From positions 1-35,634 of the forward strand of contig CAIMDW010000027.1 of assembly GCA_903839895.1 (NCBI GenBank): DNA of 35,634 bases. The letters run 5' to 3'. Position 1 is the stretch's first letter, and each line of letters starts with the position of its first letter. Under the pieces are notes generated by a model. The model searched no databases and was not told where the DNA came from. It saw nothing but the letters and a program-made list of their open reading frames with translations. A program made the position numbers and the translations under genes. This DNA is from Candidatus Staskawiczbacteria bacterium (GTDB lineage Bacteria > Patescibacteriota > Minisyncoccia > Minisyncoccales > Staskawiczbacteraceae). Positions 4,922-35,634 of the stretch are shown here, piece by piece.

Positions 4922-5677
4922 TTAGAATCCGAACAGGTGTTTGAAGAAGCTTCCAATACCATGCATCATTCCGCCGAATCCACCTTGCGGCTTTGTTTTG
5001 TTTTCTGCATTATCTCCTGTTCCGGCAGGCTTTGCTTTCTGGTCAATCACCGACGAAGCCGTTACTGCATTTCCATTTATTATTCCTTGCACAACAACGC
5101 TGTCTCCTACTGCCACATTCGAAATTGTGGGATTTACAACGCCGTTTACTGCAAATTTTGCATTTGTGGCGTCAATTGTATAAGTGACATTGCTGGCGTT
5201 GGTAATTGTAATTGAGCTTCCGCTGAGTGCAGTAACCTTTCCTGCCACAATCGGCTGGCCGTTACCCTGTATTTGCGAAAGATCTTGTTTTTCCAAACCT
5301 GGCCTGACCCCGTCCCTAATGGCTGTTGCCACAATATTTGTCCCGGTGATTGTTCCTTGGACCATTATTGTATCCCCAACCGCAATTGCTGAAATTGCTG
5401 ATGTCGCGCCATTTTTTGCCACAGTTGCTTTTGATGCGTCAACCGTATAAATTGTCGTAGTTTGCGTTCCCGCAGAGCCTTCTGACTTCATTTTATTCTT
5501 GCTTGTTACCGTAATTGTCGTTCCGCTTACTGCTGAAACCATTCCCACAATACCCGGTTTGCCCATCATCCCTCTATTAAAGCCAGAATTTCCTTGAGCA
5601 AAAATTGGAGCCGCAAATGCAAACCCTCCTACTATTACTGCCGCCATCATAAACGAAATAATTTTTTTGTTTTGCAT
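4922..5677 (-). CDS. secreted protein with two internal beta-rich repeats of about 75 aa (DUF5666-like) and a Gly/Met-rich tail
   Basis: Start set at the ATG at 5677 (MQNKKIISFMMAAVIVGGFAFAAPIFAQG, a signal peptide). This removes the overlap with the exonuclease gene. Repeats: ...TIYTVDASKATVAKNG...AVGDTIMVQGTITG... and ...VTYTIDATNAKFAVNG...AVGDSVVVQGIING... Confidence 0.7.
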   Translation of the reverse strand: MQNKKIISFMMAAVIVGGFAFAAPIFAQGNSGFNRGMMGKPGIVGMVSAVSGTTITVTSKNKMKSEGSAGTQTTTIYTVDASKATVAKNGATSAISAIAVGDTIMVQGTITGTNIVATAIRDGVRPGLEKQDLSQIQGNGQPIVAGKVTALSGSSITITNASNVTYTIDATNAKFAVNGVVNPTISNVAVGDSVVVQGIINGNAVTASSVIDQKAKPAGTGDNAENKTKPQGGFGGMMHGIGSFFKHLFGF

Positions 5678-5757
5678 GTATTGGTTTTTAATTTTATTTA
5701 CATTAACCAATACGCGGCCATTGGCGCACTCGGTGCATTTTAGGTCCGTTTTCACCC

Positions 5758-6339
5758 TTAAATTCCAAATTTCTTCAATTCCCAAAAACATTTTGCTGTA
5801 GCTTCTGCATCGGCTAATGCGTTGTGAGAGCCCTCGAATCCGCAGCCGAATAATTTCATATGGAGCTCTGAAAGCTTAGGCCACTTATAACCTCCGTAGC
5901 CATTAGTGGCAGGTATTGCGCAAAAATTTGTGGACATGTCTTTCGTACAAATTTTATTTTTTCTGGCTAGGCAGGTTTGGATGCCTTTTCTGATGAATTC
6001 TGCTCCGACTACCATTTCGTCAAAGCTGATATTATGGGCAACAAGAAAATCTGACTCTGCAGCAAAACTTTCAAATTTATCCAATGCTTCCTCCAACGGA
6101 ATCCCCTCTTTTTCAGCTTGCTCGGTTGTAATTCCGTGTATGTTGGAAGCCTCAATGGGTATCTTAAAATTTTCGGGCTTGATTATCATATCTGAACTGC
6201 TGATGCAGGCGCCATTTTTATAAAATACCCAGGCAATCTGGACTAATCTTGGCCAATTTTCCAAATCACTTATCGGGGCGCGCCAGTTGCGTGGCAATCC
6301 GGTGGTTTCCGTATCAAAAAATAAATATGCTTTGTCCAT
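5758..6339 (-). CDS. DnaQ-like 3'-5' exonuclease (DEDDh, DNA polymerase III epsilon family)
   Basis: Exo I FFDTETTG, Exo II LVAHNISFDEMV, Exo III HNALADAEATAKCF. Confidence 0.85.
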   Translation of the reverse strand: MDKAYLFFDTETTGLPRNWRAPISDLENWPRLVQIAWVFYKNGACISSSDMIIKPENFKIPIEASNIHGITTEQAEKEGIPLEEALDKFESFAAESDFLVAHNISFDEMVVGAEFIRKGIQTCLARKNKICTKDMSTNFCAIPATNGYGGYKWPKLSELHMKLFGCGFEGSHNALADAEATAKCFWELKKFGI

Positions 6340-6351
6340 ATATGTGGCGTT

Positions 6352-6927
6352 CTATAAAAAACTCGCAATTATGTTTGATAATTCATCTTTCCCTTCGTCT
6401 GTTTTTGCCGAATATTCTAAAATTTGAAGGCCCTGCGCTTCTTGGATTATTGAGGAAATTTTTTCGGCCCTTTTGGCTTTTGCCAGCTTGTCGGCTTTAT
6501 TGGCAATTATAATAATCTTATGATTATTCTTTTTGACTATTTGGAGCATTTCCCAGTCCAATTTGGTCAATCCGACATTAGCATCAATAACTAAAAAGAC
6601 CGCTTTAGGCCTTATGTTTGAGAATTCTAAATACCAGAAAATCCTTTTAACCATCCGGTTGCGGTCTGCTATGGAACGCCTGGCGTATCCGTATCCAGGA
6701 AAATCAACAAGATAAAAAGAATCATTCATCCTGAAAAAATTCGCCTCAAGCGTTTTTCCGGGAACCTTGCTGGATTTTACAAAGTTTTTTTTGCCGGTCA
6801 GAGAATTAATCACGCTGGATTTGCCAGAATTTGACCGCCCTAAAAAAGCAATCTGGGGAAAACCATCTCCCGTACTATAATCATTCCCGATAACTCCTCT
6901 GGCAAACTCTGTCTTCAATATTTTCAT
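6352..6927 (-). CDS. engB: ribosome biogenesis GTPase EngB/YsxC/YihA
   Basis: G1 GRSNSGKSS, G3 DFPGYGYA, G4 NKADK. The spacing of the N-terminus to G1 is typical of EngB. Confidence 0.9.
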   Translation of the reverse strand: MKILKTEFARGVIGNDYSTGDGFPQIAFLGRSNSGKSSVINSLTGKKNFVKSSKVPGKTLEANFFRMNDSFYLVDFPGYGYARRSIADRNRMVKRIFWYLEFSNIRPKAVFLVIDANVGLTKLDWEMLQIVKKNNHKIIIIANKADKLAKAKRAEKISSIIQEAQGLQILEYSAKTDEGKDELSNIIASFL

Positions 6928-6929
6928 TG

Positions 6930-7000
6930 CTGCGGGACTTGGACTCGAACCAAGATACCAGCCTTCAAAGGGCTGTGTCCTACCTTTAGACGATCCCGCA
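6930..7000 (-). tRNA. tRNA-Gln (anticodon UUG)
   Basis: Hand-folded cloverleaf on the minus strand: acceptor UGCGGGA/UCCCGCA, D arm GUCU-AAAGGUA-GGAC, anticodon arm CAGCC-CUUUGAA-GGCUG, variable GUAU, T arm CUUGG-UUCGAGU-CCAAG, discriminator G. 71 nt; CCA is not encoded. U1:A72 is typical of bacterial tRNA-Gln. Confidence 0.9.
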
Positions 7001-7012
7001 AAATATTATATT

Positions 7013-7041
7013 ATAATATCATTTTTCTGAAGTTTTTTCAA
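7013..7041 (-). promoter_or_regulatory. candidate promoter for tRNA-Gln/engB, TTGAAA-17 nt-TATTAT
   Basis: On the minus strand, TTGAAA (7041..7036), a 17-nt spacer, then TATTAT (7018..7013), 12 nt upstream of the tRNA 5' end. The -35 lies inside the 3' end of the capA-like gene. Confidence 0.35.
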
Positions 7042-7990
7042 CCGTTTGGCCATTGGCTTCCAAATGGAAATATTTATCGGCGAATTCCATTTGCTTTGTT
7101 TTTTTGTTTATTTTTACCTCGACTCCCAATCCATTTTGCACACCTTGGTTGAAGCGCTGGTCAAAAATGAAGTTTCCCAGCGAATAATAAATTTTCTTTC
7201 CATTATATATTTCAGTCGTTTCAATTACGTGCGGATGCGAGCCGATAATCAGGTCAGAGCCCGCATCTATGAGTTCATGCGCCAAATTGCGCTGAGGATC
7301 TATTGGCTGGGTCGAAAATTCCTTTCCCCAATGGCAATAAACAACCACAATATCAGCATATTGCCGCACTTGCTTTGTTTTGGCAAGAGTTAAATTTTGC
7401 TCTATTTCATCGGCCTTGCTGTCTGCGTATTTATTATAGCTGACAAATGCAATTTTTAATCCGCCTATTTCTTTAATTATGCTCCGATTGTTTCCGCCAA
7501 AAAAATTGACTTGGGATGCAGACAAATATTTTTCAGTGGATTCTAGGCCTGCTTGCTTAAAGTTCAGGGCATGGTTATTGCCCAAATCAACCAGCCTTAT
7601 ATTTTGTTTGTAAAGAGTGCCCGCGAGGCTGGGATCAAATGTAAAAGTTATGTATTTGGGATCAGATTCGGCAGCTCCCACGCTGACCGACGGATTGTCA
7701 GTAAGCGGACCCTCCAAATTTGCCACTGCCAAATCTTCTTGAGCAAGCAGCGGAGAAATTTTTTCAAAGATAAAATCATTTCCATTTGCTTTGGCCGCTT
7801 GCCTTATGGTCCGGTCAAACATCATATCTCCCGCAAAAAGTATTTTTACGTATGAATTTTCAGCAGGAATTTGCAATATTAGCGGAAGCTTTTTTGGAAA
7901 AAACAAAAAACAAACAGCTGCTGCAAGCGCAACAGCTGTTAAAATTGCAAAATAAATCTTTATTTGCAGGCGGTTTTGTATGTAAGGCAT
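7019..7990 (-). CDS. CapA/PGA_cap-family metallophosphoesterase-like membrane-anchored protein
   Basis: N-terminal TM, then motifs FAGDMMFDR, VANLEGPLT, DLGNNHALNF, HWGKEF, GSHPHV, characteristic of the CapA family. Confidence 0.8.
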   Translation of the reverse strand: MPYIQNRLQIKIYFAILTAVALAAAVCFLFFPKKLPLILQIPAENSYVKILFAGDMMFDRTIRQAAKANGNDFIFEKISPLLAQEDLAVANLEGPLTDNPSVSVGAAESDPKYITFTFDPSLAGTLYKQNIRLVDLGNNHALNFKQAGLESTEKYLSASQVNFFGGNNRSIIKEIGGLKIAFVSYNKYADSKADEIEQNLTLAKTKQVRQYADIVVVYCHWGKEFSTQPIDPQRNLAHELIDAGSDLIIGSHPHVIETTEIYNGKKIYYSLGNFIFDQRFNQGVQNGLGVEVKINKKTKQMEFADKYFHLEANGQTVEKTSEK

Positions 7991-9531
7991 TGCGTTGTTC
8001 CCAAGAGATTATTTTTATCAACGCAAAGATAAGTTCCATTGGGCAATTTTGTTGAAACGCAGAAGTCTTGGGCCGCAGACAAGCAAGCCGGATTGCTGCT
8101 TCCATTTTTTATCAAATCTGAAACCGCAGAAATAAGCGACGGACTTTGTGAAGCTCCCTTCGGGGCCTTTATATATCCGTTTGTTGCACAGAGCAATAAA
8201 TATTTCTGGGTTTCAGCAAAAATCGCTTTGGCTGAGTTTCCAATTGCCTGAATGTCAATTCTAATTTTCTCTGCTTTTAAGAAAGGAAGCGCCAAATCTT
8301 CAAATTTGCCTGCGCCTGCGGGTTCTGCAACAGTTATTTGCTTGTTGAAATTGGAATTTGCAATATTAGCTTTTATTTTTGGACTGTCAATTTTTATTTG
8401 ATAAAGCAAATAATCTGTTTTTCCAATCCAAATTTCTGCATTCGTATCTCCAACCAAGTTTGCAATTTGGTCAGCATAAGCTGAAAGTCCGGATTTTGCC
8501 AGCATGGCGCTTGTTTTAGCTTTTGTTACGGTGGCAGAATAATGATAAGTGTCCTGGCCGCTTATAATCTGGCTGCCAAGCTGCTTTAAATTGCTGAATA
8601 AATTTGTGAAATCCAAATTCAGGTTTGGAGTTGGAATTTGTGTTCCTTGCGCTGTCGCCAAGGTTTTTATAGAGTTCTGATCGATTTTAAGCCATTTTCC
8701 TATGACTTTTGCTTTGTCATCGCCAAAAGAAATAGTATTTGAAGGATCGGCAAGTTCATTTACTTTGAAATAAAATACTCCATTCACAAAAGCCATATTT
8801 ATGCTTCCGGTGGCCGCTTGTCCCGCTGCCTGCGAAAAGTTAAACGTGAAATTTCCGTCGGCTTTCGGATTTGAAGCATCTGTAAAATCTGTTTCGCTGT
8901 TTGCATTTATAGCGAATTTTCCAATTTCTATGCTAGTTATAGAATGCATTGCCTTCACATTTTTTGTGGCCGTAACCATATTGTCAACAATTGTCTGGGA
9001 ATTAGGCGAAAATATGCTCCACAAGTAACCTGAATATGGCAAATTCACATATTGTCCGGCAGTGAAATAGATTCCAACCAAAGCAATTAAAATTACTAAA
9101 ACAATTGATAATTTCGCAATAAAATGCGACCTCGGCTTTTCGCTTAAAGTGTACATTGATTGCACAGGCGCTGTTTTTACAGTTTGGATTGGCTGGGCTT
9201 GCGGCTGCTGAACTGGAGTATTCTGCAAGATTACAGACTGGAAAGAAGGCTCGGCCTGGACCTGTGGCTGAACTTGAACTTGAGGCTGTGTTTGAGGGCC
9301 TGGTTGGCTGGCAGGTTGCGGCTGGGCCGTTTGAGGCTGTGATTGATTTATAGGCTGGAACTGGGGTTTTGTCTGTAAAACCGTACTTTGGGTTGGCGTT
9401 AAAGCCGACATGGCTTCGACAACCTCGGCTTCTGTCCAGCCATTTTTATACAACAAAGCGCGGCTCTGGTCGTCAGGCTGTTGCGCTTCCCTTGCCTTTT
9501 TTATGTAATCTAACAAAGCTTGCTCTGGCAT
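7960..9531 (-). CDS. hypothetical single-pass membrane protein: small N-terminal helical domain, Pro/Gln-rich linker, TM, large extracytoplasmic domain with a Cys-rich C-terminus
   Basis: 523-aa ORF. Contains the QPQ/PQV low-complexity run and the TM segment FIAKLSIVLVILIALVGIYF. No family recognised. Its 3' end overlaps the capA-like start by 31 nt. Confidence 0.6.
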   Translation of the reverse strand: MPEQALLDYIKKAREAQQPDDQSRALLYKNGWTEAEVVEAMSALTPTQSTVLQTKPQFQPINQSQPQTAQPQPASQPGPQTQPQVQVQPQVQAEPSFQSVILQNTPVQQPQAQPIQTVKTAPVQSMYTLSEKPRSHFIAKLSIVLVILIALVGIYFTAGQYVNLPYSGYLWSIFSPNSQTIVDNMVTATKNVKAMHSITSIEIGKFAINANSETDFTDASNPKADGNFTFNFSQAAGQAATGSINMAFVNGVFYFKVNELADPSNTISFGDDKAKVIGKWLKIDQNSIKTLATAQGTQIPTPNLNLDFTNLFSNLKQLGSQIISGQDTYHYSATVTKAKTSAMLAKSGLSAYADQIANLVGDTNAEIWIGKTDYLLYQIKIDSPKIKANIANSNFNKQITVAEPAGAGKFEDLALPFLKAEKIRIDIQAIGNSAKAIFAETQKYLLLCATNGYIKAPKGASQSPSLISAVSDLIKNGSSNPACLSAAQDFCVSTKLPNGTYLCVDKNNLLGTTQCLTYKTACK

Positions 9532-35180: not shown

Positions 35181-35293
35181 CTGTAGGAGAACTACCTACT
35201 CTCGCGCAAAGCACTACCATCGGCCTTGGAAGATTTCACTTCTGAGTTCGAAATGGGATCAGGTGGAGCACTTCCAGTATAGTTCTCTTACAC
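35181..35293 (-). rRNA. rrf: 5S ribosomal RNA
   Basis: The reverse complement contains CCACCTGATCCCATTTCGAACTCAGAAGTGAAA and GCGAGAGTAGGTAGTTCTCCTACAG. These align with E. coli 5S (CCCACCUGACCCCAUGCCGAACUCAGAAGUGAAA...GCGAGAGUAGGGAACUGCCAGGCAU). Helix I closes between about 35292 and 35182; ends are good to a few nt. Confidence 0.85.
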
Positions 35294-35399
35294 TATTCAC
35301 GATTTTTTTCAAAGCTTGCTTCTAAAATACCTAAAATCTATATCTATTAGTTAACTTACGAATGATGATGAATCCGATACGCTCAAATTCTGAGTATAT

Positions 35400-35634
35400 C
35401 GAAGGATAAACGATTTATTAGTACTCCCGGGCTGAACACATTACTGTGCTTACACCTAGAGCCTATCAACCCCGTGATCTGCGGGGAATCTATGAGTTCT
35501 CATCTTGGAGTTAGTTTCGCGCTTATATGCTTTCAGCGCTTATCTATTCCCGACTTAGCTACCCAACGATGCTCCTGGCGGAACAATTGGTACACCAGAG
35601 GTCAGTTCATTCCGGTCCTCTCGTACTAGGAACA
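35400..35634 (-). rRNA. rrl: 23S ribosomal RNA, 3'-terminal part, truncated by the window edge
   Basis: The reverse complement begins TGTTCCTAGTACGAGAGGACCGGAATGAAC (sarcin-ricin loop) and continues ...GATAAGCGCTGAAAGCATATAAGCGCGAAAC...GGTTGATAGGCTCTAGGTGTAAGCACAG...AGTACTAATAAATCG, colinear with the E. coli 23S 3' end. The 3' boundary is approximate, within about 10 nt. Confidence 0.9.

Follow-up and report, generated by a model that had tools for sequence, protein, structure and literature searches.

tRNA punctuation, with its leaderless mRNAs, is textbook knowledge for animal mitochondria, where it was reportedly set out by Ojala, Montoya and Attardi in 1981. PMC4633059 and PMC12242768 cover this mitochondrial arrangement. 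In Bacillus subtilis, according to published work (Pellegrini 2003, as cited in PMC1874595 and PMC7479834), precursors of tRNAs whose genes lack CCA are processed by RNase P, then by RNase Z after nucleotide N73, and finally by the CCA-adding enzyme. Leaderless mRNAs that are made directly at the promoter have been described in Mycobacterium (PMC3898074), Deinococcus (PMC4007540) and Caulobacter (PMC8459731). The loss of the anti-Shine-Dalgarno (anti-SD) sequence in a subgroup of Parcubacteria has already been published (Tsurumaki et al. 2022, PMC9297842); that paper contains no discussion of leaderless genes, tRNA junctions, CCA or RNase Z. Our literature search for tRNA punctuation in bacteria or the candidate phyla radiation, or for leaderless mRNAs made by RNase Z, returned only work on mitochondria and on promoter-made leaderless transcripts.

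Here, we analyze a tRNA-Gln(UUG) gene that ends directly in front of the start codon of engB in a Staskawiczbacteria-type Parcubacterium. The window, meaning the whole stretch of DNA that was analyzed (35,634 nt), is contig C27 of a genome of 593 kb in 45 contigs, which is 86% complete (G000). As in mitochondria, the tRNA lies directly against a start codon in what would be a polycistronic unit, the ribosomes work without a Shine-Dalgarno (SD) sequence, and excision of the tRNA would leave an mRNA with a leader of 0–3 nt. Unlike in mitochondria, this would take place in a free-standing bacterial genome with ordinary promoters, in which only some genes are so arranged; RNase P is RNA-based, as in other bacteria, the searches gave no RNase Z/ELAC2 orthologue above threshold, and the engB junction is young and not conserved. 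The locus shares with B. subtilis the un-encoded CCA, RNase P, a CCA-adding enzyme and the expected order of 5′ before 3′ processing. It differs from B. subtilis in that RNase Z was not found, that the trailer is coding sequence, and that all tRNA genes encode C74, with which the CCA motif that blocks B. subtilis RNase Z begins. The promoter-made leaderless systems are alike in three respects, as the genome carries the signature of a −10 box at −12, the engB orthologues have such a box, and the AUG lies in unstructured RNA, whereas the 5′ end of the engB mRNA would here come from RNA processing (5′-monophosphate, leader of 0–2 nt) and not from initiation. As in the anti-SD-less Parcubacteria (PMC9297842), the 16S rRNA tail is without CCUCC.

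The tRNA-Gln(UUG)/engB junction and its promoter

The features at and around the junction are the following.

7019–7990: CapA-like gene, with its stop codon TGA at 7021–7019
7036..7041, minus strand: −35 hexamer TTGAAA, inside the last codons of the CapA-like gene
7013..7021, minus strand: extended −10 element TGA-TATTAT, the TGA of which (7021–7019) doubles as the stop codon of the CapA-like gene
6930..7000, minus strand: tRNA-Gln(UUG), 60.6 bits with the Rfam tRNA model, above the Rfam gathering score
6928..6929, minus strand: C74-A75, the whole spacer to the ATG and the start of a 3′ trailer that is conserved in the clade
6352..6927, minus strand: engB, YsxC/YihA ribosome-biogenesis GTPase of 191 aa, with its ATG at 6927
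5758..6339, minus strand: gene of a DEDD (DnaQ/RNase T superfamily) 3′–5′ exonuclease, 12 nt past the engB stop

Read from the window, the minus-strand letters of the junction are ...TCCCGCA-G-CA-ATGAAAATA..., with the discriminator G73 at 6930, C74-A75 at 6929–6928 and the ATG at 6927. This bears out the first-pass annotation of this DNA, which had described a gap of 2 nt between tRNA-Gln and engB. It had also stated that the CCA end is not encoded and that an SD motif has no room before engB. Both statements stand: the gene reads G73-C-A-A, the last A being the A of the ATG, and only 2 nt lie between the tRNA and the start codon. The tRNA has a cloverleaf with 7 of 7 acceptor-stem positions paired in the acceptor-stem check, including U1-A72. 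ARAGORN calls a tRNA-Gln with anticodon UUG at 6929–7000, the extra base relative to Rfam being C74. Since this single-copy gene is the sole decoder of CAA found in the assembly, the 3′ end of its product must be freed.

The tRNA-Gln fold (−28.1 kcal/mol, z = −3.1) starts 3 nt before the AUG, and the first 48–50 nt of the engB RNA have hardly any structure (−2.1 to −2.5 kcal/mol; 181–192 of 200 shuffles fold more stably). An initiating ribosome would have to melt the tRNA fold unless the tRNA had been cut off. The special feature of this junction is a stable tRNA fold at the landing place of the ribosome.

The start codon of engB was assessed by comparison with orthologues from 4 relatives and 29 public genome or metagenome loci (64–79% identity). 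The gene product matches TIGR03598 (YsxC/EngB) over its full length (161.7 bits, cut-off 124.45, residues 14–187), and ATG 6927 is the first ATG, GTG or TTG after the upstream stop of the reading frame. All 4 + 29 orthologous loci begin with M-K/E-I/T-x-K/S-A/T-E/K-F at the same residue, and similarity ends exactly there; ATG 6927 is therefore the true engB start. A start at the TTG of codon 4 (6918), which is the sole other in-frame start before the G1 motif, is highly improbable and was rejected on this N-terminal conservation, as the first residue is shared by the 33 orthologues, which mostly use ATG (two use GTG) and have no TTG at codon 4. The DEDD exonuclease gene is probably on the same transcript as engB. 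It is linked to engB and tRNA-Gln in the relative G011 too, in a different order (tRNA-Gln, GIY-YIG gene, DEDD exonuclease, engB).

A promoter scan of positions 5500–8200 returned TTGAAA-17-TATTAT with a TG extension (7041–7013), the site proposed in the first-pass annotation, as the best promoter-like site (10 of 12 matches), and reported nothing inside the tRNA gene. TTGAAA, the 17-nt spacing and TGn-TATTAT also precede tRNA-Gln(UUG) in G011. The −10 element ends 12 nt before tRNA position 1, so that a 5′ leader of ~5–6 nt would be expected. No TANNNT occurs within 20 nt upstream of the engB ATG, where positions 6946–6928 are tRNA sequence, and engB is without a −10 box ending 5–7 nt before its start codon, as would be found with a promoter-made leaderless gene. 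The upstream promoter is the only promoter-like site for the tRNA and engB, and a terminator has no space between the two.

Translation starts, tRNA gene ends and processing enzymes in the genus

The 3′ tail of the 16S rRNA reads GGAUCA-UUUUU... in place of GGAUCACCUCCUUA in 15 of the 15 genus genomes where it was found, this genome included. An Rfam small-subunit rRNA search of this genome gave no match, and the 16S 3′ end was then found by a pattern search at a contig edge (G000:C12:15076-15118). The missing anti-SD is the structural cause of a general lack of SD motifs, which the first-pass annotation had asserted for core genes and which the counts confirm: SD-like words before 494 long open reading frames (ORFs) are at background level (11% vs 10%). 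The region from −6 to −3 upstream of these starts is 53–60% A. The pattern TANNNT has a sharp peak at −12, where it occurs at 12% of 358 well-defined starts, compared to 1–8% at neighboring positions and 4–8% for control patterns. Strong −10 boxes in this set of 358 genes are most frequent at −12 (31 genes) and −14 (29 genes), and ~17% of genes have a −10 box placed for a leader of 0–2 nt; these statistics apply to a gene set defined by simple ORF rules in an incomplete genome, and the relatives used for comparison are non-independent samples. A sizeable share of the genes therefore appears to be set up for transcription with a 0–2 nt leader. The lost anti-SD, the lack of SD usage and the −10 peak at −12/−14 together indicate, indirectly, that the translation system accepts leaderless mRNA.

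Side observations concern the same regions. The 16S tail has the general form GGAUCA-U5-8-A..., without CCUCC, in 15 of 15 genus genomes, and its U-tract might pair weakly with the A-rich −6 to −3 leaders. Genome-wide, strong SD-like 5-mers are ~3 times more common at −18 to −4 (7.5%) than in a control window (2.6%). A small subset of genes keeps SD-like motifs despite the missing anti-SD.

C74 is encoded in all 40 tRNA genes of this genome, A75 in 28 of them and the full CCA in only 6, which leaves 34 of the 40 in need of CCA addition. The relatives G014 (C74 in 34 of 35, A75 in 21 of 35) and G001 (34 of 34 and 23 of 34) are similar, and the full CCA is encoded in only 6–7 tRNA genes in each of the three genomes. 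Because C74 is invariant, the CA in front of engB is a conserved tRNA gene end and not free spacer, so that the engB ATG directly adjoins a conserved element of the tRNA gene. tRNA genes that end in C74 alone have, to our knowledge, not been described. Two of the processing components are encoded at the following positions.

G000:C5:29090-29443: RNase P RNA (RF00010, 122 bits)
G000:C23:3183-4652: gene of the CCA-adding enzyme, cca (NF009814, 300.1 bits, cut-off 290)

The L15 strand of the class-A RNase P RNA is A-A-G-U-A, compared to the family consensus G-G-G-U-A, in 23 of 23 genus genomes (this genome and 22 others). In Escherichia coli RNase P RNA, G293 pairs with C74 and G292 with C75 (PMC1874595). 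On this basis the RNase P RNA retains the G that partners C74 but not the one for C75, which matches the tRNA genes. As L15 keeps only the G that pairs with C74, its sequence suggests that RNase P may act on precursors which still carry the encoded trailer, in this case the engB RNA. The same order, with RNase P acting on trailer-bearing RNA, has been reported for the CCA-less precursors of B. subtilis (PMC1874595).

The RNase P protein gene rnpA (75.9 bits) and the genes of RNase Y, RNase J and PNPase are present in this genome, whereas RNase E/G, RNB-family enzymes and RNase Z were not found in it at 86% completeness. The first-pass annotation had recommended a check for RNase Z and a CCA-adding enzyme. 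The latter is present, while canonical RNase Z reaches the TIGR02651 cut-off in 0 of 26 genus genomes, and the RNase Z-type cleavage which had been proposed is thus not supported by gene content. The weak RNase Z matches in this genome belong to RNase J and a Cys-rich MBL protein. An arm-less RNase Z relative of 248 aa (104 bits), without model positions 152–198 (the arm region), occurs in 18 of 25 relatives and is missing from the other seven, six of which are 95–100% complete. In comparisons with solved structures, its full length resembles uncharacterised MBL hydrolases and Apyc1-type enzymes, and the match to RNase Z is confined to the first 100 residues. The C74/A75 pattern is the same in G001, which has this MBL relative, and in G014, which is without it. 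A tblastn search of this genome with the neighborhood of the MBL relative (relA, PAP2, glyA) gave no match, the locus being unassembled; the engB control matched. New here are a genus in which 26 genomes yielded no canonical RNase Z and an invariant C74 with a matching single-G L15 in RNase P RNA.

engB and cca loci in relatives and further tRNA junctions

A conserved junction was sought in 40 relatives and in contigs of public genomes and metagenomes, and none was found. In 0 of 33 related loci does a tRNA lie against the engB start codon, and the junction is unique to this species. EngB/YsxC is essential in model bacteria. Within the genus, the gene was found in 3 of 26 genomes, most of the 26 being 90–100% complete, and is absent from 23, so weak or no expression might be tolerated. 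The 11 closest of the 29 engB orthologue loci (5 distinct sequences, 71–79% identity) have a −10 box of the leaderless type (TAAGAT, TAATAT or TAGAAT) that ends 5–7 nt before the ATG, often just after a T-run. Six loci have a tRNA-Gln (UUG or CUG) 60–1100 nt upstream of engB. Given these engB promoters and upstream tRNA-Gln genes, the junction studied here is best read as a loss of the intervening DNA, engB promoter included. In this genome the conserved tRNA-Gln promoter, together with the tRNA, would thereby replace the leaderless promoter of engB.

The cca gene appears to have undergone the same exchange of a promoter for a tRNA. In 18 of 24 genus genomes, cca has a conserved TTGAAA-17-TAAGAT promoter which ends 9–12 nt before the ATG, and tRNA-Arg(UCG) is divergent or absent upstream. 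In the remaining 6 genomes tRNA-Arg is co-directional upstream and the promoter is gone; the spacers between tRNA-Arg and cca are 7 nt (G000, G001), 10 nt (G020) and 29–30 nt (G006, G008, G014). The promoter-for-tRNA swaps at engB and cca, as read from these loci, are also new here.

The first-pass annotation had asked for a comparison with other junctions between tRNA and protein-coding genes. There are several others within 2–9 nt, including that of the CCA-adding enzyme gene; the seven further tight junctions counted in this genome are listed here with the distance after N73.

tRNA-Val(GAC), CCA encoded, before an RluD-like pseudouridine synthase gene: spacer CC, the ATG using A76
tRNA-Ala(CGC) before an ABC transporter gene: 3 nt
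tRNA-Gln(CUG) before a GIY-YIG protein gene: 4 nt
tRNA-Arg(UCG) before cca: 7 nt
tRNA-Val(CAC) before the gene of a 121-aa protein: 7 nt
tRNA-Gly(UCC) before a ZIP transporter gene: 9 nt
tRNA-Leu(CAG) before the RNase J gene: about 32 nt

In G001, a tRNA-Glu(UUC)-CA-ATG junction precedes the gene of a 499-aa protein. Gaps of ≤10 nt separate 42% of the 377 same-strand pairs of long ORFs in this genome, and tight gaps between tRNA and coding sequence are not enriched over this general gene packing. As these gaps are no tighter than those between protein genes, the spacing itself reflects compaction.

Possible sources of a translatable engB mRNA

We regard cleavage at the 3′ end of the tRNA as the likeliest source of a translatable engB mRNA, with a probability of roughly one half. 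For this locus we infer co-transcription, a cut, the position of the cut and the enzyme. In an organism without anti-SD, in which many genes would start with an mRNA leader of no more than 2 nt, a deletion would have taken out the engB promoter with the rest of the stretch that separated engB from a nearby tRNA-Gln, and the ATG would since then have followed C74-A75. tRNA-Gln(UUG), engB and the DEDD exonuclease gene would form one transcription unit from the promoter at 7041–7013. RNase P would trim the 5′ side first; an endonuclease would next cut behind N73, C74 or A75 of the tRNA and so release two products. One would be the tRNA, to be completed by the CCA-adding enzyme; the other would be an engB-exonuclease mRNA with a leader of 0–2 nt and an unstructured start, which would enter the leaderless pathway and would have the form that suits this translation system. 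In Caulobacter, each extra 5′ nucleotide approximately halves leaderless initiation, and a 2-nt leader causes a ~4-fold drop (PMC8459731); a 2-nt engB leader would therefore work, below the optimum. If 3′ maturation were purely exonucleolytic, the engB RNA would have to decay first, and EngB could thus be made only from the uncut precursor, the translation of which looks sterically unfavorable. The cleavage reading is weakened by the lack of a canonical RNase Z, the unconserved junction, the presence of engB in only 3 of 26 genus genomes and the commonness of tight gaps.

Several of these points are what would be expected if the junction were a tolerated scar of genome shrinkage, in which the promoter has been lost, the tRNA is trimmed by 3′–5′ exonucleases alone, once the RNA behind it has decayed, and engB is poorly or not translated because EngB is dispensable in the genus. 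A gene retained in 3 of 26 genomes, a junction unique among 33 related loci and a genome that leaves ≤10 nt between 42% of its same-strand gene pairs all fit such a history. The tRNA-tRNA spacers of 3–5 nt (e.g., Arg-CAT-His) fit it as well, as such short trailers need exonuclease trimming anyway, and so do PNPase and the DEDD exonuclease, which are present, while no RNase Z or RNase E/G was found. However, the intact engB retains every GTPase motif and exceeds the family cut-off, its start region is unusually unstructured, as expected of a leaderless start that is in use, and the non-dispensable cca gene is similarly placed, 7 nt after tRNA-Arg in G000 and G001, with 34 of 40 tRNA genes needing CCA addition. 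We consider the scar, which is the main alternative, rather doubtful, though still to be reckoned with.

Two other accounts keep engB translated without a cut at the tRNA end, and both are quite improbable. A promoter inside the tRNA, AGGACA-18-TGG-TATCTT (6981–6952), would place the transcription start near 6945, and engB would have an 18-nt leader without SD that owes nothing to tRNA processing. It has 8 of 12 matches plus a TG extension, and the organism needs no SD, but the site scores too low for the promoter scan to report it, its TATCTT is part of the conserved variable-loop/T-stem sequence and is also found in the G014 tRNA-Gln with no gene behind it, and such a leader would be rich in G+C, whereas leaders in this genome are A-rich. 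Alternatively, engB might be translated on the uncut precursor while the tRNA is unfolded or misfolded, each transcript serving as either tRNA or message. This would agree with the fact that our searches identified no 3′ endonuclease, and it conflicts with the order of events on the transcript, in which the tRNA comes first and adopts a stable fold (−28 vs about −2 kcal/mol for the start region), and with the 2-nt spacing, which leaves no single-stranded landing site.

Extending the reading of cleavage at the tRNA 3′ end to the whole genus is a more tentative step. The genus may run a bacterial tRNA punctuation without canonical RNase Z, comprising C74-only tRNA genes, a matching G in L15, a nuclease acting at positions 73–75, and a tRNA end that replaces the promoter in providing a 5′ AUG. 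Such a replacement would explain why a simple deletion or inversion can produce junctions such as tRNA-Gln/engB and tRNA-Arg/cca without loss of function. Should the cut be real, the making of mRNA 5′ ends by tRNA processing, so far a mitochondrial hallmark, would extend to free-living-type bacteria that lack the SD system, tRNA supply would be tied to the expression of downstream genes, and the candidate phyla radiation would seem to have a new tRNA 3′ endonuclease or to put a familiar one to an unusual use. If the scar reading holds instead, the locus captures the gradual loss of a dispensable GTPase of ribosome assembly. A practical use lies in the annotation of starts and operons in such genomes.

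Further observations were made on the surroundings of tRNA genes. The genes of RNase J, RNase Y, PNPase and the CCA-adding enzyme all lie near or adjoin tRNA genes (G000:C39:4876-6776; G000:C4:15217-16719; G000:C23:75-1124). cca is part of a string (G000:C23:3102-6697) with the order tRNA-Arg, 7 nt, cca, 13 nt, tRNA-Pro, 14 nt, tRNA-Ala, 3 nt, ABC transporter gene, and in about 15 of 24 genus genomes the distance between the cca stop and tRNA-Pro is ~5–25 nt. The small GIY-YIG nuclease gene (G000:C16:2080-2424) starts 4 nt past tRNA-Gln(CUG), and in G011 a GIY-YIG gene follows tRNA-Gln(UUG) across a G+C-rich stretch of ~100 nt with inverted repeats. At the edge of the window, the minus strand of 35183–35634 carries the 5S rRNA and the 3′ end of the 23S rRNA.
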